Shown here: positions 2,291-10,257 of the stretch, piece after piece
Layout: every line of letters starts with the position of its first letter
Numbering within the stretch: the stretch's first letter is position 1
Origin: a virus
Taxonomy: Duplodnaviria > Heunggongvirae > Uroviricota > Caudoviricetes
IMG/VR virus record: IMGVR_UViG_2778261446_000001
Strand: one strand, 5' to 3'
DNA length: 21,150 bases
Made by a program: the position numbers and the translations under genes
Notes under the pieces: model-generated
Databases searched by the model: none
Seen by the model: the letters and a program-made list of their open reading frames with translations, nothing else
Told to the model about the DNA's origin: nothing

Positions 2291-2643
2291 TACGCCTCCG
2301 ATGTAACAGTCGTTATTCCATAAAGAGTGTCGATTTCAGCGGAAAACATGACACGTCGGGTCGTGGTATCCACCGTCGTATTGAAAGAGAGGATTGATTT
2401 AACGCCCCGCGTTTCGAGGATGCGCTTACGGATCGCCAGGTTGTAGGTTTCCGGCTTCTGCTTACCGAGTACGGACTGGATCCACGGAGTCCCTTCGGTG
2501 GTATCGAGAAACCATTGCCCATACCACAATTCGAATCGCGTTTTTACCGCCTGCGCCACGGCCTCCGGTGAGTTAATCAGCCAGGTGTCATCACCGCTGC
2601 CAAAGGTATAATCGCCATCGGCGTCTTCACGTCTGTATCGCAT
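2290..2643 (-). CDS. Putative small baseplate wedge protein (gpW / gp25-like)
   Basis: 117-aa ORF with ATG at 2643 overlapping the spike gene stop (ATGA). Its size and its place between the spike and gpJ-like genes match gpW/gp25-like proteins. Assignment is by synteny. Confidence 0.4.
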   Translation of the reverse strand: MRYRREDADGDYTFGSGDDTWLINSPEAVAQAVKTRFELWYGQWFLDTTEGTPWIQSVLGKQKPETYNLAIRKRILETRGVKSILSFNTTVDTTTRRVMFSAEIDTLYGITTVTSEA

Positions 2644-3398
2644 CAGTTAGGCGCTCCTGTGTTACCGCCGCCGGTCTGTACTCCGCCGTGCGTGTGCGTC
2701 ATCAGGCTCTTACCACCAGCTTTTACATCGTTAGTCACCGTGACAGGGCCAAGCATCGTCGCGGTGCCGCCGCTTTCGCCCATCCCCTGAGAGAGATTCC
2801 CGTTTATTGTCACGTTGCCGTTTAGCGTGATGGTGGGTGATGTGATCGTGGTTCCTCCTTCTGCTGTCGCCGTCAACGCGCCGGGAGTTTTAACCGTGAT
2901 ATTATGGCCTGCGGCCACTTCCACAAACGCAGCGCCATCATCAGTACGCAGCTGCGCGCCACTGGTGCTTATTCCGCTTATTTTCTGCGCCTGAGACTGC
3001 GGCCCGACGATACAGAAAGCATCCGATAAATCATGCACCCGGTCGTCGACAGGCTCCTGCACCCCGCCGTTCTGCCACCAGAAATCGATGCAGCGGTCGG
3101 CGAAAATCACCAGGCATTCATCCCCGGCTTTAACCGGAAAAGTCAACGTACAGCCTCCACCGCGCGGAAATACCACTGGCACATCCACCAGCAACGGGTA
3201 ATTTTTGGTAATGCGGTTACCGTCGTTATCCTTTTCAACCGAACGGATAGCTGGCTGCACAACCGCCGTCACCGCGTCGGGATCGAATGACTGAACAATG
3301 CCAGGCAAGGCGACACGGATCTGGTTCTTTGTTGTTTCCCGTTCAGATTTGAATGTTTCGGCAAGGTCGCCGCTGCGGGTCTGGTCAGATACTGCCAT
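2643..3398 (-). CDS. Baseplate central spike protein (gpV / gp138-like)
   Basis: 251-aa ORF with ATG at 3398 and a GGAG about 10 nt upstream. The C-terminal half is Gly/Thr-rich and repetitive (NITVKTPGALTATAEGGTTITSPTITLNGNVTINGN), consistent with a beta-helix, and ends in THTHGG, an HxH motif like the metal-binding apex of phage spikes. Precedes the gpW-like gene as in P2 (V-W-J-I). Confidence 0.55.
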   Translation of the reverse strand: MAVSDQTRSGDLAETFKSERETTKNQIRVALPGIVQSFDPDAVTAVVQPAIRSVEKDNDGNRITKNYPLLVDVPVVFPRGGGCTLTFPVKAGDECLVIFADRCIDFWWQNGGVQEPVDDRVHDLSDAFCIVGPQSQAQKISGISTSGAQLRTDDGAAFVEVAAGHNITVKTPGALTATAEGGTTITSPTITLNGNVTINGNLSQGMGESGGTATMLGPVTVTNDVKAGGKSLMTHTHGGVQTGGGNTGAPN

Positions 3399-3413
3399 TT
3401 AGTAGGCTCCAGA

Positions 3414-3441
3414 AAGCAAAAAACCCGCCGGGTGGCGGGTT
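3414..3441 (-). terminator. Rho-independent terminator closing the AT-rich moron
   Basis: An 8-bp stem (3422-3429 pairing with 3434-3441, mostly G/C) with a 4-nt loop is followed on the minus strand by UUUUUUGCUUU. It sits 17 nt downstream of the membrane-protein stop codon and just upstream of the spike gene ribosome-binding site. Confidence 0.6.
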
Positions 3442-3457
3442 CATTATTGAAGTTTCA

Positions 3458-3697
3458 TTACTGCTTGTTTGCTTCTAACGCTTCAGCTATTCGGCGAAGA
3501 TACTCATTGTTTTTAAATGAAACCATGATGCACTCAAAAAATATTCGGCAAAATACAGCACATAACAAAAGCACTAAAGCGCCAGCAGCCTTCCCATTAA
3601 CAAACGTTATAATGGCGGCAACAACCAGAAGTAACATTGTGATGCCATACAGAACGTTGATGATTTTTGGAGTTATTAATTTATCAAATCCGAACAT
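3458..3697 (-). CDS. Small two-helix inner-membrane protein (moron gene, function unknown; DUF4282-like from memory)
   Basis: 79-aa ORF with ATG at 3697 and AAGGA about 9 nt upstream. It has two hydrophobic helices (IINVLYGITMLLLVVAAIITFV and AAGALVLLLCAVFCRIFFECIMVSF) and a charged C-terminal tail. Local GC is about 38% against about 55% in the flanking tail genes. It has its own promoter-like element upstream and a terminator downstream. Confidence 0.6.
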   Translation of the reverse strand: MFGFDKLITPKIINVLYGITMLLLVVAAIITFVNGKAAGALVLLLCAVFCRIFFECIMVSFKNNEYLRRIAEALEANKQ

Positions 3698-3733
3698 GCG
3701 ACAAATTCCTTATCGTGAAAGTAGAAGTATCAC

Positions 3734-3761
3734 ATTATAATTACGAGTGATTAATCAACAA
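3734..3761 (-). promoter_or_regulatory. Candidate sigma70 promoter for the membrane-protein gene
   Basis: On the minus strand there is a perfect -10 TATAAT (plus coordinates 3739..3734) with TTGTTG 16 nt upstream (3761..3756), about 35 nt upstream of the ATG at 3697. Called by consensus matching only. Confidence 0.4.
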
Positions 3762-4083
3762 TCTTTTTGCATGGAAAGGAACCGATGATTTTCGGCGCAT
3801 CCATGCTGTTCTGCAGCAGTTGGACATTCAGGAAAGCTTTTCCGTTACGTTTCACAAACTCAAAGCCGTAATTGTTACCATCACGGGAAGGCATCAGGCC
3901 CATGTCCATTTTTATGTTTGAATAGTCACCATCTTTTCCCAGAAATTTTATCTTCTGTGATGTGACAGTTTCACCGTTAATAACAGTCATTCCGTCACCG
4001 GTCATCGTGTAGTTGCCGCACTGAATTGCAGCCATCGCCGGAGCAGTAACCATCATAACTAACGCCAAACATAACCGTTTCAT
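3751..4083 (-). CDS. Small secreted/periplasmic protein with signal peptide (moron gene, function unknown)
   Basis: The ORF track gives 3751..4161, but that start overlaps the upstream gene. The likely start is ATG at 4083, overlapping the hub-gene stop (TAATG), giving 110 aa: MKRLCLALVMMVTAPAMA|AIQCGNY... with a typical Sec signal peptide and AxA cleavage site. The mature protein of about 92 aa has two Cys residues (one near each end), suggesting a disulfide. GC is about 43%. The layout is reminiscent of MliC/PliC-type lysozyme inhibitors, from memory only. Confidence 0.55.
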   Translation of the reverse strand: MKRLCLALVMMVTAPAMAAIQCGNYTMTGDGMTVINGETVTSQKIKFLGKDGDYSNIKMDMGLMPSRDGNNYGFEFVKRNGKAFLNVQLLQNSMDAPKIIGSFPCKKIVD

Positions 4084-5147
4084 TAAAGCCCTCTTTCCCT
4101 CGCTGATGAGGAAACAAGATCCGCCGCGCCACGCGCTTCGCACATCATATCCATGTACCACGCCTGGCCCCTTGTATCGCCAGTGTACATAATCCCGCGC
4201 ACAATATAAACGCCATCCGTTGCGATGCTGGCAGGTTGTGCTGTGGTGCCGCTTAGCGTGATATTTCCGTCCGTGTTCTGGTCGGTGATCTGCCCACCAG
4301 CCATCGCAATATCGTTGTTCGACAACGCGGTGCGATATACGGAAGCCTGATCCAGTTGAATGAGCCCATTAACCCGGATGTTCGGATTAATAAGCGCGCG
4401 GACGTTTACGCCGTTGCCGATAGTCTGCTGCGGCATGCCGATAAGCCCGGTGGCGCTGTTGAGCACAATCGCTTCATGAACATATTCGTTATTCGCCACC
4501 ATCTGGCGTTGACCGTCCACGAATTGCCATGTTGCGCCACATTGCCCGGCTACGTTATCCATAAGATGCCGCGTCATGCCAAAGAGCACCCGCCCCCGGG
4601 GGAATACAGTAGCAGGCATTTCAGGCGTCAGGCCTTCGGTCGCGCCTTTGGCTTCGAAGTCTTTCATCAGCGCACGGTTCACATCAGCGACCGTGTAACC
4701 GGCAGCCAGCGTCTGTGAGGTTATACTGGTGGCAAATGCCAGATCCGTATCTGCTGCCTGAATCAGGACATAGGAATCAATAGGGCTGTCTTTTCCTGTG
4801 ACCGAGTAGCGAATTTCTCCGCTGAAAATCAGCCCGTAGTTGCGGCCATCACTCTGGCCCACATCTGCCGCGTCGACTTCGCGCACGGTCCCGACGTCGC
4901 TTGCCGCCACCTCCGGCGCGATACCGTCGTAACCGGCAATCAGCCGCACTTTCGAAAATTCCTTCCCGGTGATTCGGTTCACAGTATCTGCCAAGAGGTT
5001 ATAAATTTTGATAGTCCCTACCCGGGACGCGCTGCTGATGTTGAACCAGTCGATCGTAAAGGTGACTTTGAAATCACTTAGCTCAATTCCCTGACCGTTC
5101 CCGTCCACAAGCTGCAGCTCGAAATGTCTCATCCAGTTCTGTGACAT
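4083..5147 (-). CDS. Putative baseplate hub protein (gpD / gp27-like)
   Basis: 354-aa ORF with ATG at 5147 and GGAG 7 nt upstream. Located downstream of the tape measure and upstream of the central spike, as hub proteins are in Mu/P2/PBSX-like tail modules. Assignment is by synteny and size. Confidence 0.45.
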   Translation of the reverse strand: MSQNWMRHFELQLVDGNGQGIELSDFKVTFTIDWFNISSASRVGTIKIYNLLADTVNRITGKEFSKVRLIAGYDGIAPEVAASDVGTVREVDAADVGQSDGRNYGLIFSGEIRYSVTGKDSPIDSYVLIQAADTDLAFATSITSQTLAAGYTVADVNRALMKDFEAKGATEGLTPEMPATVFPRGRVLFGMTRHLMDNVAGQCGATWQFVDGQRQMVANNEYVHEAIVLNSATGLIGMPQQTIGNGVNVRALINPNIRVNGLIQLDQASVYRTALSNNDIAMAGGQITDQNTDGNITLSGTTAQPASIATDGVYIVRGIMYTGDTRGQAWYMDMMCEARGAADLVSSSARERGL

Positions 5148-5149
5148 GC

Positions 5150-5452
5150 TTACTCCGTTGATACCAGTAAATGACTGCGGCCACCCAGATCAGTTTTCGA
5201 GGGATAATCCTGTGTGTTGTCATCGCAGACCACCACCAGCTTAAAACCAAGCCCCATACAGGCGTACTGCGCCAGCAGATCAGCGCCAGTGACGAGAGGA
5301 ATACCGGAGATTACCGGCTCCCCTCTGTCGTTCTGCAGGTCCATAATCCAGTAAGGATCGCGCCATATGATGCTAATCTGCCAAGTGACACCACCCAGGA
5401 CGATGCTGAACTGCTGGTTGTCCGCTGTCAGCGGAATTTCCTGAATAGTCAT
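5150..5452 (-). CDS. Small tail/baseplate protein, uncharacterised
   Basis: 100-aa ORF with ATG at 5452 overlapping the upstream stop (TAATG). Lies between the tape measure and the hub gene. Confidence 0.35.
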   Translation of the reverse strand: MTIQEIPLTADNQQFSIVLGGVTWQISIIWRDPYWIMDLQNDRGEPVISGIPLVTGADLLAQYACMGLGFKLVVVCDDNTQDYPSKTDLGGRSHLLVSTE

Positions 5453-6039
5453 TAGCCGCCTCCCAGTAATGACGCCACGTTACCAGTGATGCTTTTCAGC
5501 AGTGAAGTATCTGGAGGCTTTGTGGTTTTGTTGCCGCTGTTCTGTAGCGCCGACGTGCTGGCCCCTTCCTTCATGTTGGTTTTATCCGCGACGGTGATCT
5601 GCTGTGTCCGGGAGATAAGGACCTCCCTCAGGGTGAGGACGGCGGACAGGACGTTTTCGGTTGTCTTGTCCGTCGTCACTTCCAGCGCCCGGATCAACAT
5701 GTTGCTGTACAGTCGTTTACCGGTTACCACATCGAAGGGGATACGGCTTTCCTGCAGATCCAGTAGCTCCTGATACGTCTGCTGAGGACTCAGGCCGAGC
5801 AGGCTGGTAGCCGTCAGATTACTGGCAAAATCCAGCAATGCGCCGCCACCGGCGAAACCAACCTCCATCACCACTTCTGACGGTTTTTTATAGGCATGAT
5901 CAGCGACAGCGGCCCCGACCTCTACCGGATGCTCTGTTATTTCAAGCATATCTGTATGCTTCTCTGAAATAACAACACTGGGAACAATCATTCCTATTTT
6001 TCTGCTCTGCTGATGAAAAAGTGTAGAGAGAATATCCAC
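5452..6039 (-). CDS. Tail/baseplate protein downstream of tape measure, uncharacterised
   Basis: 195-aa ORF starting at GTG 6039, which overlaps the tape measure TAG stop (TAGTG), with a GAGGG-rich Shine-Dalgarno upstream. An alternative internal ATG at 5991 has poor Shine-Dalgarno spacing. Confidence 0.4.
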   Translation of the reverse strand: MDILSTLFHQQSRKIGMIVPSVVISEKHTDMLEITEHPVEVGAAVADHAYKKPSEVVMEVGFAGGGALLDFASNLTATSLLGLSPQQTYQELLDLQESRIPFDVVTGKRLYSNMLIRALEVTTDKTTENVLSAVLTLREVLISRTQQITVADKTNMKEGASTSALQNSGNKTTKPPDTSLLKSITGNVASLLGGG

Positions 6040-8027
6040 TAACTCACCCTCACCTGATTACTTCGCATGACCTGAGCATTTGCAGACTGTTGCCGACGTG
6101 CAACCTCATTACCGACAGCGTGCGGATCTCCGCCACCGTAAATGTGGTAAGTATTTTGCTGGTTAACCTCTGTCATTTTGCCACTAATTCCCGCCACGGC
6201 AGCCTTATTAATCAGCTCTCGAGAATAGATATTTCTTCCATTTTCATGCTGGATAATGCTGCTCATCAATGCTGACATGGTTTGCGGATCGCTCATATTC
6301 AGGGCAGCCCGGGGATCCACTCCCAGTCGTTGCGATACAGCCCTGATATACGCAGTTGTGTTGTTATTATCAGACGCAGGTGCCCAGGTAGAGATAATTT
6401 TCTCCACACTGTTTATTCCCCGTCCGGCGTACAGCATTAACTGACGAGCAAGAGCCCGTAATCCATCAAAAGCAGTTTCAAATCTGGCAAATCGCCCGCC
6501 CGGGCGTTCAAGAGAAGCCCCTGCCTGACCAGCAAAATTAAGGTTTCCCGGATTGTTATTCCGTTCTCCTCGTTTCGTAGCCTGTGCATATTGTTCCGGC
6601 TCATCATCACTAAACCAGCCGCGTACCGTCCGGCCCACACTGCGGGGATCGAATCCCCAGTGCTCTTTAATCCAGTCGGCAGTACTGTTAGCGCTGTCTG
6701 TAACCATCGGCATCGCTGACGGATTTTCGCTGCCCTGATTAAGTATCTGTTTGCCGATGCTGACGGCATCAGCCCAGCGGCCATCTTTGATAGCGTTGAG
6801 CAGGTCGGCGATCATGTTCAGCATTTTGCTGAATTCGCCCATCTGGTCGATGAAGTTGCTGAAATCCCACTTCAGGGACCATGATTTGGGGTCAATATTG
6901 AGCAGTTTCGCCAGCGCTTTCGCCAGTTCATTAACAGACCCTTTCAGGTCACGAACCATCTTCAGCGCGGCATCGACCTCCGGCTTCCACTTGCCCCAGT
7001 CAATCAGGCTGTCGCCGCCTTCCTTCCAGGTCTGATAGTCCTCCCACAGAAGGGCAATCCCCGCCGCCAGCGCGGTAATGAGGCCAATCGGCGACATCCA
7101 GAACGTACTGTTCAGAATGCGCAGCGCAATCGTCAGCGCGCCAAACAGCGAGATGAGCTCCCGCGTTTGCTTATCCAGCGATTGCCACCAGGTGATGAGG
7201 CCTGATGTTCCTTCAATCAGTCTGAAGAACAGCCGCCCGATAATATCCCCGAGCGCCAGAATGCCTTTTATGGCTTTCGTCAGGGTCTGCTCGATACGCG
7301 GGAAGTTGTCCAGGATATGGCGGCGCAGAGTGTCCAGCGAACCCGCAAGCCCACCCGCAAGATTAGAGCCGATTTTGTCACGGGCCATGCCTGCCATCGC
7401 GCCAAACTCACGCAGGGAGGTCATAAATTTGTTGGAGCTTCTGGCCGCCTCGTCAGCATTGAAGCCGATAGCTTTCGCCATTGCGCTGTACTGCCCGGAG
7501 AAACCACCCACACCCCGGCGCATAGCCATCAGGGTATTTTCGTCAATGCCCAGCATCTGCGCATACTGGTTAGCCCGGTAATACGGCATGCTGCTGAGTT
7601 TCTGTCCAACGCCCGTAAAGATAGCAGCCATGTCACGCATGTTACCGCTGGCATCACGGGTCTGTACGCCCAGGCGATTCAGAAAGCCTTCTGCTCCGGG
7701 ATTGTTACGAATAAACCGGGAGAGGCTTTCCAGAGAAGATCGCACAGCGTCCACACTGCCGCCAACCTGCGAAACCGCATAGCCAATAGACTGAATTCCC
7801 TGGACCGTCGCGCCGGTGCGCTGTGACGCCCAGTAAAGATTATCCAGGCCGGAGGCGATCTTAGCCGTGAAGGCCACCACGGACAGCGCAGCTCCTTCAA
7901 CAGCCAGCCCCATTTTGATGACATTTGCAGTTGTACCGGCGAGGACAGAACCGAACTTTTTCGCTCCTGCATCATCCACACTGAAGCCAAGCGAGACGAG
8001 GAAATCTTTAATAGTTTCAGCGTTCAT
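6039..8027 (-). CDS. Tail tape measure protein
   Basis: Long ORF (track 6039..8048 starts at a TTG). The preferred start is ATG at 8027, preceded by GGAGAGAGG. The protein is Ala/Gly/Leu-rich and helical, with a central hydrophobic segment (LITALAAGIALLW). It follows the chaperone and its frameshift extension, the canonical arrangement. Confidence 0.8.
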   Translation of the reverse strand: MNAETIKDFLVSLGFSVDDAGAKKFGSVLAGTTANVIKMGLAVEGAALSVVAFTAKIASGLDNLYWASQRTGATVQGIQSIGYAVSQVGGSVDAVRSSLESLSRFIRNNPGAEGFLNRLGVQTRDASGNMRDMAAIFTGVGQKLSSMPYYRANQYAQMLGIDENTLMAMRRGVGGFSGQYSAMAKAIGFNADEAARSSNKFMTSLREFGAMAGMARDKIGSNLAGGLAGSLDTLRRHILDNFPRIEQTLTKAIKGILALGDIIGRLFFRLIEGTSGLITWWQSLDKQTRELISLFGALTIALRILNSTFWMSPIGLITALAAGIALLWEDYQTWKEGGDSLIDWGKWKPEVDAALKMVRDLKGSVNELAKALAKLLNIDPKSWSLKWDFSNFIDQMGEFSKMLNMIADLLNAIKDGRWADAVSIGKQILNQGSENPSAMPMVTDSANSTADWIKEHWGFDPRSVGRTVRGWFSDDEPEQYAQATKRGERNNNPGNLNFAGQAGASLERPGGRFARFETAFDGLRALARQLMLYAGRGINSVEKIISTWAPASDNNNTTAYIRAVSQRLGVDPRAALNMSDPQTMSALMSSIIQHENGRNIYSRELINKAAVAGISGKMTEVNQQNTYHIYGGGDPHAVGNEVARRQQSANAQVMRSNQVRVS

Positions 8028-8657
8028 TATCCTCTCTCCATTTCTCAATGCGCCGCTGGTTATCCGCTTTTACCGCCAGGTGGTCATTCAAGAGAGCAAT
8101 GTCGTACAAATCGACAGAGCCATCTTTAAGTGCTGTATAAGGAATTAACCCGGCGTCAACCGGATTGAGAAGGTAGGACAGCCCGTCCGGCAGGCTGTTA
8201 AACGTCAGCCCTGTTGCAGGCTCTGCGTCGTGCTGGTAAGGGGTGTAGGCAAAAAATTTCCCAGCGAATCGGCGACCACCCGCGCCACCAGATGCAGCAT
8301 GACCAGCAAGTCAATATCATCAAACATCAGTTCGCCCTGGGTAAATACCGGAACCCATCCGTCCATATGACGCCGCGATACCACCGCAAGACAGGGATGA
8401 ATAATCGCACTGGTGTCATCTTCGGTCAGGGAAGACAGTTCCTCAGCGATACGCGGGAGCATGGTTTCAAACACCGGTTTTAACTGCTCGAATTTCACGG
8501 TGTCGATTTTGCCATCAGCAGGCAAACGGGAGCGAATGCTCCCGAAATCTGACATCATTCCTGCCAGCACCGGCAGAAGTTTGCGGGTCACTTTCAGCTG
8601 ATCAAAAACGCTGAGTTTTGCCGCGCGATATTTCACGCCTTTGATTTCGAATTCCAT
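8017..8657 (-). CDS. Tail assembly chaperone, -1 frameshifted long form (gpGT-like fusion)
   Basis: The zero frame ends at 8205. The -1 frame is open from the slippery tract (minus-strand A-AAT-TTT-TTG, plus coordinates 8250-8259) for 86 codons to a TGA at 8019..8017, just inside the tape measure start. Translated by hand (...FFAYTPYQHDAEPATGLTFNSLPDGLSY...IEKWREDNER*). There is no start codon in this frame, which is why it is missing from the ORF track. Confidence 0.5.
8205..8657 (-). CDS. Tail assembly chaperone (short form)
   Basis: 150-aa ORF with ATG at 8657 and GGGGAG about 10 nt upstream. Sits between the tube and tape measure genes, and is acidic, as tail chaperones typically are. 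Confidence 0.6.
   Translation of the reverse strand: MEFEIKGVKYRAAKLSVFDQLKVTRKLLPVLAGMMSDFGSIRSRLPADGKIDTVKFEQLKPVFETMLPRIAEELSSLTEDDTSAIIHPCLAVVSRRHMDGWVPVFTQGELMFDDIDLLVMLHLVARVVADSLGNFLPTPLTSTTQSLQQG
8250..8259 (-). other. Candidate -1 ribosomal slippery site in the chaperone gene
   Basis: Minus-strand sequence gga-aat-ttt-ttg contains the overlapping heptamers A_AAT_TTT and T_TTT_TTG. The -1 frame downstream of it is open to the tape measure start. Confidence 0.45.
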
Positions 8658-8660
8658 GTA

Positions 8661-9101
8661 TTAAAACTCCCCGAGAACCTGGTCAATCTTGCCGCAGTCA
8701 AACACCCACGGCATCGTATTACCGGTTTTAGCGTTGGCATTATCCGGTTGTTTCTGGAACGCAACACTACGTGCCGTGATGATGTCGCCGCTGACCTTGT
8801 TTCGGATCACAATAACGTTATTCCCCCATGTGGCAGAAGACTGGCTCTGTGCGTTATACGCCAGCGACAATTTTTTATTTGTCGGTGATGTCTTCAGAAG
8901 GTTAACGGTAATCGTCCCGCTTTTATCTGCATGGAGACTGTGCATCACTTCGCCATCAGAACCGATGGTCATGGTGTTTTTAGGACCGCCCATCGCAACC
9001 ACAATCCCCTCTTCAGAACTTGCAGAACCGTACCCGAGGTCAATCGAACCGGTCGGCCCGGTCAGCGTCGCAGTGACATCCATAAAAGAATAGGTAGACA
9101 T
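8661..9101 (-). CDS. Tail tube protein
   Basis: 146-aa ORF with ATG at 9101 and AAGGGGAAG upstream. Immediately downstream of the sheath gene and upstream of the chaperone; size is typical of myovirus tube proteins. Confidence 0.6.
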   Translation of the reverse strand: MSTYSFMDVTATLTGPTGSIDLGYGSASSEEGIVVAMGGPKNTMTIGSDGEVMHSLHADKSGTITVNLLKTSPTNKKLSLAYNAQSQSSATWGNNVIVIRNKVSGDIITARSVAFQKQPDNANAKTGNTMPWVFDCGKIDQVLGEF

Positions 9102-9111
9102 TCACTTCCCC

Positions 9112-10257
9112 TTAGCGAACAACGTTAATCTGTACGTCAGCGTAATGAACCGCGCCTGCAAGTTTTATTGCAGCCTGAATCACCGGAGCCTTACGGGCTT
9201 CACGTTCTGATTGTGCCTGTTCATCCAGCGGCTGGGCGTATACGTAATAACCTTTGGGCAGTGTGTCACCTGATGACAACTGACCAAGGTCGCCCCCGTT
9301 CCATACGCCCGGAGCAATCAGTCCATTCTGAACGGCCTGATCCAGTGATTTTTCAACATTTGATAACAGTCGGGTAATACCGGCTTCAGTCTGGGGAACT
9401 TTCGTGGTGCTGGTATAAAGCAGGTTATAGAGGTTGGTCTGCACATAATTCTGTAACCAGTCCAGGCCGTGGCGTTCATCAAAGAAATCGCCGTTAGCCA
9501 TCACTCCCTGCTGGAGGATAGCTGTATCATTCTGGTAGTACACGAACACATTGCAGTTTTTTGCATCAAGTGCCGATGCCTGGCTGACTGTCAGTGTTTC
9601 ATACCCGACACCCGGCTCCTGCTTAAACTTGAGCGTAATCGCGGTATTACTGCCATTGAAATTAACCGTGAATGCCCGGCCAAATGCAGATAACGCAGCG
9701 TATTTATTACCCGATGAATATTGAATAAAACTGCGTGAATATCCGGCGGTTTTCAGTTTTGATGCCAAATCATCGCTGGATGCAGTCTGCAGGCATTTCT
9801 CATCGCTTGTCGTAATCGCCAGAATACGGCTTACAGAAGAGGATTCGATCGCCGCAGCCACTTTCAGCCAGTCTGCATCCGGAATATCTTCATCGTCTGC
9901 AATCCCCAGCCCATACCATGAAGTATAATCGAGCATGGCATTCACAGCCTGCTCCAGCGTCTCAGGCGTGGCCTGTTCGCTGTCTCCCTTCGTTTTCACC
10001 CAACGACCAACAAAAACCTCCTGAGGTTTCGGTGATTGAGAGAAAAACACCTGCGCAGCCTTATATTCTGGTGATTCCACGCCAAAATCTTTTCCAATAT
10101 CTTCCGCGGCAGAATAACGGCGAATGCGCTCACTTACCGGAATGATTGTGGACGGGCCGAGAATGAGTAATGCACCAAAATTTCGCCCTGATGCTGCACG
10201 CGGCGACATGATCACATCAACATTAACAACGTTTGATACAGGCAAGCCCTGTGCCAT
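9112..10257 (-). CDS. Contractile tail sheath protein (DUF3383-like from memory)
   Basis: 381-aa ORF with ATG at 10257 and GGAG about 10 nt upstream. It is the first gene of the sheath-tube-chaperone-tape measure block; size and order are typical of short sheath proteins. Confidence 0.7.

Follow-up and report, generated by a model that had tools for sequence, protein, structure and literature searches.

The gp15 of HK97 is a small inner-membrane moron product encoded in the tail operon, and it blocks DNA entry (Juhala et al. 2000; Cumby et al. 2012; as summarised in PMC3594210). In T4, superinfection exclusion involves Imm (PF14373), which is a small inner-membrane protein with two helices, and Sp (Spackle), which is small and periplasmic; both are expressed early and not from a prophage. 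T4 Spackle is a periplasmic inhibitor of a tail lysozyme, and the peptidoglycan-hydrolase inhibitors of the PliC, MliC and PhiA type are small Sec-exported 8-stranded beta-barrels of about 90 residues with a disulfide. The variable sites of phage genomes, as known in P2 and in a survey of hyper-variability (bioRxiv 10.1101/2024.10.15.618418), combine a fixed core junction, exchangeable toxin-antitoxin, defence or exclusion cargo, and flanks that allow recombination swaps. Here, we describe a locus comparable to these systems in a 21,150-nucleotide stretch of Caudoviricetes DNA (IMG/VR record IMGVR_UViG_2778261446_000001), the whole of which is called the window and supplies all the position numbers. 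The locus lies between the baseplate hub gene and the central spike gene of a lambdoid SEN34-like myovirus prophage of E. coli and contains two genes named as gene A and gene B. We consider, with a probability of roughly 0.6, that this junction is an accessory slot with two independent layers, gene A being one and gene B the other, and that envelope or DNA-entry protection is the likeliest role of both.

The tail genes of the window are all on the minus strand. Gene A (3751-4083) encodes a protein of 110 amino acids belonging to the STY1065/STY2022 family (phrog_3443), and gene B (3458-3697) encodes a DUF4282 protein of 79 amino acids (PF14110, phrog_12129). The slot is anchored upstream by the hub gene (4083-5147, 354 amino acids), which matched phrog_196 “baseplate hub” with an E value of 2e-87 and showed a weak Pfam match to E217_GP41. 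Its downstream anchor is the spike gene (2643-3398, 251 amino acids), whose product carries a gpV-like N-domain (PF18352, E value 1.4e-43) and an Apex motif (PF18946). A preliminary description of the window had recognised here a low-GC island encoding a 110-residue protein with a signal peptide and a 79-residue two-helix membrane protein, and both the island and the two minus-strand genes were found as it had placed them. The region spanning 3399-4083 has a GC content of 40.7% against 54.7% for hub and 56.5% for spike, and it is the lowest of the 21 kb (mean 52.2%, standard deviation 3.4). GC content below 45% occurs nowhere else in the window, and only 0.16% of the stretches of equal length are as low. 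Within the island, the GC content is 43.2% in gene A, 37.1% in gene B and 34% in the intergenic sequence.

The ATG of gene A shares one base with the TAA stop of the hub gene (4085-4083; TAATG), and a GAGG is present 7 nucleotides upstream. A scan of the window found no promoter-like site 5′ of the gene A start, and because the ATG overlaps the hub stop there is no room for one. By this arrangement, translation of gene A is coupled to that of the hub gene. The same order is kept in relatives. When searched by tblastn, gene A was found 3′ of the hub gene in 20 phage records, including E. coli phage vB_EcoM-689R2 and its relatives, Salmonella SEN34, Yersinia YP3, several Klebsiella phages and Citrobacter Omnitron. 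When single genomes of each species were scanned with a pattern built on an alignment of homologues (A1), 33 loci were obtained from over 15 genera of Enterobacterales, among them Escherichia, Klebsiella, Citrobacter, Yersinia, Photorhabdus, Serratia, Pantoea and Rahnella. A hub match was present 5′ of gene A in 30 of these 33 loci; hub, gene A and spike were all present in 26, and the distance from hub to gene A was at most about 85 nucleotides in 24 of those 26. Where the contig extends far enough, the hub stop and the gene A start are separated by about 2-85 nucleotides in nearly all loci, with hub identity going down to 48%. Inserts separate the two genes in two loci (L037 and L041; L numbers denote the loci compared), and an insertion sequence (IS) element has replaced the hub gene in a third (L026). 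The GC content of gene A is 41-50% in all of the approximately 40 relatives and usually lies about 10 points under that of the hub, the gap being small or absent where the hub itself has 44-48%. Since it is low in every lineage, the GC content of gene A is a stable property of the family and not a mark of recent transfer. Separately, two records labelled as Flavobacteriia carry the enterobacterial-type tail module (L016, Chryseobacterium sp. 18061, with a hub protein 94% identical; and OM284015.1, Elizabethkingia phage EKP1), which probably reflects assembly contamination or mislabelling.

The gene A product begins with MKRLCLALVMMVTAPAMA/AIQCG, in which a KR n-region, a hydrophobic core and an A-x-A site can be read from the translation, and its codons 1-18 (nucleotides 4030-4083) are predicted to encode a Sec-type signal peptide. 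The first 18-20 residues drift among homologues yet keep the form of a signal peptide with small residues at -3 and -1 (alignments A1 and A2). The mature domain is well conserved, with a mean column identity of 64% in A1, and of its cysteines C22 is invariant and C105 nearly so in both alignments. The AlphaFold2 model shows an 8-stranded up-and-down beta-barrel from residue 20 (mean predicted local distance difference test score, pLDDT, 87), preceded by an N-terminus of low confidence (pLDDT 58-65). Gene A is therefore predicted to encode a small Sec-exported periplasmic beta-barrel that would be co-produced with the late tail proteins, probably with a disulfide between the two conserved cysteines. 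Residues 3-109 matched phrog_3443 with an E value of 4.5e-53. The RefSeq protein WP_040063285.1 is identical to the gene A product and is named “STY1065/STY2022 family phage-derived protein”; the scan of the NCBIfam library gave no match, and the name probably comes from a rule other than that library. Pfam and PADLOC scans with gene A gave nothing informative, a search of a viral structure library with its fold returned no significant match, and profile searches of PDB sequences gave no match for either protein. An exhaustive HMMER search with gene A collected 56 representative sequences. Matches to giant proteins in that search fell in Listeria-Bacteroides (Flg_new) repeats and were set aside as a compositional or beta-strand artefact.

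Gene A is kept, and it is also dispensable. In Acerihabitans (L036) and Rahnella (L044), the slot is empty and the spike gene starts 10-12 nucleotides after gene A, with neither cargo nor terminator between them, so gene A persists where the slot holds no cargo. The preliminary description had regarded the island as one horizontally acquired two-gene moron. A single, recent acquisition is not supported, as gene A stays at these empty sites and pairs with many cargos elsewhere. It had also asked whether hub and spike are adjacent in relatives lacking the island; they are directly so in Providencia phage PSTCR3 (hub 38% identical), where they overlap by 4 nucleotides and gene A is absent, but not in L036 and L044. 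In Hafnia phage yong1 (hub 77% identical) and the metagenomic contig L051 (hub 88%), gene A is replaced by a different secreted protein of about 135 residues when mature, starting with VSRRSILLVVSLLIPLSGMA/APGKYEK (L047, the yong1 locus, 4067-4594; L051, 1741-2260; the yong1 gp67 is annotated from an internal ATG). A decayed 3′ end of gene A, terminating in SMDAPKLIGSFPCKKVPG and a stop codon, survives downstream of the replacement protein in both. Burkholderia phage Magia carries another signal-peptide protein at its hub-spike junction, on the opposite strand. In Serratia aquatilis (L037, ~4420-9440), the stretch between hub and spike contains an IS transposase and five additional paralogues of gene A in tandem, one of them truncated, and the layout resembles an immunity-gene array. 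Judged by this distribution, gene A is an old accessory add-on, dispensable for a working phage and not structural. It has no promoter of its own, and PSTCR3, yong1 and L051 are the only cases in which it is missing or has been exchanged, which is not the behaviour of a moron as defined by Hendrix and Juhala.

A structural alternative would make gene A a part of the baseplate or of its assembly, for example a plug or tip in the hub-spike complex, with an N-terminus that is an uncleaved membrane-insertion segment. The strictly conserved position between hub and spike, the translational coupling and the conservation of the mature domain argue for such a part. We consider it very improbable, as the N-terminus has the classical Sec form and keeps its small-x-small site while the rest of its sequence drifts, and the conserved cysteines at the barrel ends suit periplasmic folding. 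Furthermore, PSTCR3 lacks the gene and the isolated phage yong1 has an unrelated secreted protein instead; about six tandem copies, as in S. aquatilis, are atypical for a structural protein of fixed number; and the GC content stays about 10 points under that of the structural genes in most relatives, the gap narrowing or vanishing where the hub is at 44-48%. Clear homology to baseplate proteins, which the preliminary description had named as an outcome that would speak against it, was looked for in Pfam and PHROG, and neither protein matched a structural family. Both products are predicted to be envelope-targeted, and gene A is missing or replaced in working phages; none of this fits a structural component of the baseplate.

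Gene B has a different distribution. The tail module, as marked by its hub gene, was found in 304 of 5426 complete E. coli genomes (about 5-6%) and is present in many Salmonella, Klebsiella, Yersinia and Photorhabdus genomes too, and the gene B cassette was found in 83 of the E. coli genomes. In 142 further E. coli genomes, only the first 32-46 nucleotides of the cassette query, which correspond to the terminator, were matched, and other cargo such as a YafO toxin gene is present there. In L004-L006, one and the same 352-nucleotide cassette accompanies three alleles of gene A (100, 70 and 56% identity), and the spike alleles beside it also vary. Homologues of gene B in the same slot occur in a Pectobacterium prophage (hub 56%, gene A 43% and gene B 67% identical) and in metagenomic contigs. 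At other sites, Edwardsiella phage GF-2 and a Klebsiella siphovirus prophage have a homologue directly 3′ of the tape-measure gene, and a Pantoea prophage has one 3′ of the lysis genes. A chromosomal, non-phage homologue (L055/L056, 4001-4240; 62% identical) sits between genes for a LysR regulator and an acetyltransferase, with its own terminator and a GC content below that of its flanks. The flanks of the Klebsiella, Pantoea and chromosomal copies were read: all three have a hairpin terminator of their own, and an AT-rich promoter-like region also lies upstream of the Klebsiella and Pantoea copies. These contexts showed that gene B behaves as a self-contained cassette moving among phages. It is present in some and absent from close relatives (83 of the 304 genomes, with other or no cargo elsewhere), and its composition is unlike that of its neighbours (37.1% GC against 54.7 and 56.5%). 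The earlier reading as a moron is supported for gene B, which is of low GC, patchy, and provided with a promoter-like site and a terminator, but not for gene A, which is coupled to the hub and kept in about 40 relatives.

The same comparison bears on whether genes A and B were acquired horizontally as a single moron and work as a pair. They are adjacent, both are of low GC and both products are predicted to be directed to the envelope, and the same pair recurs in the distant Pectobacterium prophage. Most relatives, however, have gene A without gene B and with many other cargos in its place, gene B is found without gene A in four other contexts, and the identical gene B cassette is found beside three different alleles of gene A. 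Gene A is coupled to the hub whereas gene B has a promoter-like site of its own, and the empty sites still keep gene A. A single working pair is, in our judgement, very improbable.

The sequence between the gene A stop and the spike start varies from about 0 to 4.1 kb among the loci, with a GC content of 36-46%, and gene A adjoins more than 10 other cargos in it. Toxin-antitoxin pairs of the YafO type are present in four loci (L028, L032, L033 and L038) and a Phd/Doc pair in another (L039). In L033, from Photorhabdus australis, a further cargo is a T4 Imm-like protein (PF14373) with a fused zinc ribbon. A protein of 282 amino acids in Rouxiella silvae (L035, gap positions 72-920) combines two N-terminal transmembrane helices with an Mrr_cat nuclease domain; its architecture recalls the membrane-bound nuclease SNIPE (PMC13190303). 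DUF2335 membrane proteins occupy the slot in L025 and L029, secreted tRNA_anti-like proteins occupy it in L023, L024 and L027, and there are several proteins without a known family, including a 170-amino-acid protein of vB_EcoM-689R2 whose gene overlaps the end of gene A. Judged by its exchangeable contents, the hub-spike junction is a prophage accessory-gene hotspot, and a role of gene B in defence or exclusion is plausible by association with these cargos. It shares with the described phage hotspots the fixed core junction, the exchangeable toxin-antitoxin, defence or exclusion cargo and the flanks that allow recombination swaps. In the literature searched, we did not find a description of this junction between hub-gene A and spike in SEN34-like phages, of its conserved terminator or of its resident barrel gene, and the SEN34 paper does not discuss the locus.

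The perfect TATAAT -10 element reported for gene B in the preliminary description was found at 3734-3739. A TTGTTG (3761-3756) lies 16 nucleotides upstream of it within the last codons of gene A, so that the promoter-like site spans 3734-3761 on the minus strand, and a ribosome-binding site AAGGAA (3706-3711, minus strand), as read from the sequence, is located 8 nucleotides 5′ of the gene B ATG. The pattern TTG-N19-TATAAT has one match in the window against 0.13 expected. Both hexamers are kept in L052 and L051, where the cassette has diverged and the protein is about 87-91% identical. A sigma-70 promoter is thus predicted to drive gene B. On the other side of the gene, an intrinsic terminator is predicted at 3411-3442 (minus strand), consisting of a stem-loop (3421-3442; GAACCCGCC-ACCC-GGCGGGTTT) followed by the T-run TTTGCTTTCT. 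The stem has 9 bp with six GC pairs, and the element ends about 12 nucleotides 5′ of the spike ATG. By a perfect-stem rule, a hairpin with a T-run was found 18-25 nucleotides before the spike ATG in 23 of the 33 loci, imperfect hairpins were seen by eye in six more, and a hairpin also precedes the spike in yong1 (L047, 5157-5185) and at the near-empty site L041. The stems vary by lineage, for example AACCCGCC/GGCGGGTT, ACCTGC/GCAGGT and AACCCAGC/GCTGGGTT. Because it is conserved whatever the cargo, the predicted terminator is best assigned to the backbone or the slot and not to the gene B cassette. Hence, the strong stem-loop that had been read as an autonomous terminator of the island is present, but it is common to the slot cargos. 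For gene B, then, the promoter-like site is unique in the window and the predicted terminator is strong, yet the -35 hexamer is weak and the terminator is shared.

The gene B product matched DUF4282 of Pfam (PF14110) with 42.2 bits against a cut-off of 27 (E value 1.2e-10; model positions 2-85 of 86) and phrog_12129 with an E value of 8e-48; its RefSeq product name is also DUF4282, and the only other Pfam match was a weak one to YbhQ. The AlphaFold2 model shows a helical hairpin (residues 10-33 and 37-78; mean pLDDT 86) in agreement with two peaks of hydrophobicity. The conserved residues lie near both ends and in helix 2 (LITPKI, R51, E55 and FKNNEYLRRI), and helix 1 and the loop are variable (alignment A3). 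We predict gene B to be an inner-membrane two-helix protein with both ends in the cytoplasm. Small size, two transmembrane helices and a charged C-terminal tail are the general architecture of class II holins, and gene B, with 79 residues, two transmembrane helices and a charged C-terminal tail, could by its form be a holin-like or membrane-depolarising effector of lysis timing or abortive infection and not a blocker of DNA entry. The conservation of R51 and E55 inside the second transmembrane helix and the position of the Pantoea homologue, about 600 bp 3′ of a holin-lysozyme-spanin cassette, agree with such an effector. The prophage, however, already carries lambda-family holin, endolysin and Rz-type genes, a holin expressed constitutively from a moron promoter would be toxic, and a homologue lies in the chromosome among housekeeping genes. 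No holin family was matched in the Pfam, PHROG and NCBIfam scans, and we regard a holin-like function as improbable.

The accessory slot with two independent layers, which we prefer, would work as follows. In the first layer, gene A would be made with the late tail proteins, exported by Sec and active in the periplasm as a disulfide-bonded binder or inhibitor. In the second, gene B would be transcribed from its own sigma-70 promoter, with transcription stopping at the hairpin before the spike. The prophage is lambdoid and has, 5′ of its lysis and late genes, a gene for an antitermination protein, so the classical moron logic applies. In the lysogen, gene B would be transcribed by the host RNA polymerase up to the terminator and no further, and the tail genes would remain silent; during lytic growth, a Q-type antiterminator would modify the polymerase so that it reads through. 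On this model, we infer that gene B is expressed in the lysogen. Both proteins may then act at the envelope or in DNA entry to protect the lysogen or the infected cell, as HK97 gp15, T4 Imm and T4 Sp do, and this envelope-level protective role of genes A and B is likewise inferred. The HK97 gene 15 is like gene B in being a small inner-membrane gene inside a lambdoid tail operon with deviating GC content and its own promoter and terminator, which are putative for gene B. Both have chromosomal relatives (YebO for gp15 and the L055 homologue for DUF4282), and gene 15 adjoins the tape-measure gene, as do the gene B homologues of two other phages. They differ in that no sequence relationship between them was found, and gene B has two transmembrane helices, belongs to DUF4282 and sits at the hub-spike site of a contractile tail. 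The pairing of T4 Imm and Sp is matched in kind by genes B and A, respectively, and the PF14373 protein of Photorhabdus places an Imm-like cargo in the same slot. T4 Sp is helical, in contrast to the all-beta barrel of gene A. Homology between gene B and the Imm-like cargo was considered and rejected, as hhalign gave a probability of 0.4%, and the early expression of imm and sp in T4 is a further difference.

Several results weigh against the protective, two-layer reading or weaken parts of it. The promoter-like site of gene B agrees with the -35 consensus at 3 of 6 positions only and was missed by a stricter scan; at least one match to its pattern arose in 11 of 100 shuffles, and no obvious promoter precedes the Pectobacterium copy. 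The low hhalign probability between gene B and the PF14373 cargo of L033 takes away a direct tie to Imm. Neither protein matched any component model of PADLOC-DB 2.0 at E values up to 1, and Pfam matches to Imm, YebO and MliC were absent for both. With both ends of gene B in the cytoplasm, its conserved surface is cytoplasmic rather than periplasmic, and one homologue stands among housekeeping genes; from these two observations, a general membrane role is possible. Finally, the alleles of gene A do not co-vary with those of the tape-measure, hub or spike genes, and so no partner of gene A in the phage's own tail is indicated.

The allelic variation itself is considerable. Gene A falls into discrete classes of about 100, 87, 70, 65 and 56% identity among modules whose hubs are at least 94% identical. 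When the window was compared with L001-L027, local mosaicism was seen in the tape-measure gene (classes of about 74, 92 and 98%) and the spike gene (about 70 and 97%), and the hub, W and J genes of the same modules are mostly 84-99% identical, J being the most variable. This pattern indicates that the envelope-penetrating parts of the tail are strongly mosaic locally. One candidate function for gene A is that of a periplasmic peptidoglycan-hydrolase inhibitor of the PliC/MliC or Brucella PhiA type, which would neutralise the transglycosylase of an incoming tape measure or guard the cell wall late in infection. The predicted small periplasmic 8-stranded barrel with two conserved cysteines is of the form described for these inhibitors, the tape-measure protein of the prophage itself bears a lytic transglycosylase domain, T4 Spackle provides a precedent, and the tandem paralogue arrays look like arrays of immunity genes. 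Set against this, gene A showed neither a profile match to MliC/PliC (PF09864) nor a fold match to them that stood out from other barrels, and its alleles do not track those of the tape measure, so that this specific function appears distinctly unlikely. A wider proposal, which we put forward as a speculation with a small chance of being right, is that the gene A family is a hitherto unrecognised class of periplasmic “immunity barrels” that bind the tail tip of superinfecting contractile-tailed phages, either the spike or a tape measure with lytic transglycosylase, or else a host envelope factor needed by them. Gene A would then do the work of T4 Spackle with a fold unrelated to it, and the allele classes, the variable barrel loops and the six-copy Serratia array would be signs of an arms race over specificity. 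Gene B would be a second exclusion factor at the inner membrane, and the junction would be a dedicated “entry-defence” locus of this lineage of phages.

The locus is a classical moron in an accessory hotspot beside an older, fixed accessory gene, and as a kind of element it is known, with both protein families already catalogued. In the literature searched, no papers were found on DUF4282 or STY1065/STY2022, nor on the PHROG numbers and RefSeq accessions of the two proteins. The junction is a compact, well-delimited site that gathers envelope-acting accessory genes, including two widespread and uncharacterised families, DUF4282 and the STY1065/STY2022 barrel. If either family blocks phage entry, new exclusion factors relevant to the host range of phages in therapy would be at hand, and the order hub, barrel, cargo, terminator and spike would serve as a genomic marker for mining. 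If neither gene has a phenotype, the locus is a textbook example of the moron model and adds nothing new. Its most interesting point is the exported barrel family, which is widespread, diversified into alleles and sometimes amplified in tandem.

The remaining tail genes of the module are arranged around the slot in the same orientation. Upstream of the hub gene lie, on the minus strand, the tape-measure gene (6039-8048), whose product bears the lytic transglycosylase domain, a baseplate protein gene (5452-6039) and a plug gene similar to gp18 of Pam3 (5150-5452), and the sheath-initiator, gp47/J-like and wedge genes follow 3′ of the spike gene in the order of transcription, again on the minus strand. 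A scan of the whole window against Rfam returned zero RNA families. An antisense open reading frame of 102 amino acids with a GTG start (3432-3740, plus strand) was dismissed as probably spurious, since it lies wholly opposite the gene B cassette (the hairpin, gene B and the intergenic sequence upstream of it) and lacks independent support. Just past position 1 of the window, in the same prophage of E. coli 13C1065T (L046, 13223-15207), a gene of the recombinase family adjoins opposed fragments of tail-fibre and fibre-assembly genes, an arrangement that suggests an invertible host-range switch of the Gin/Cin type.

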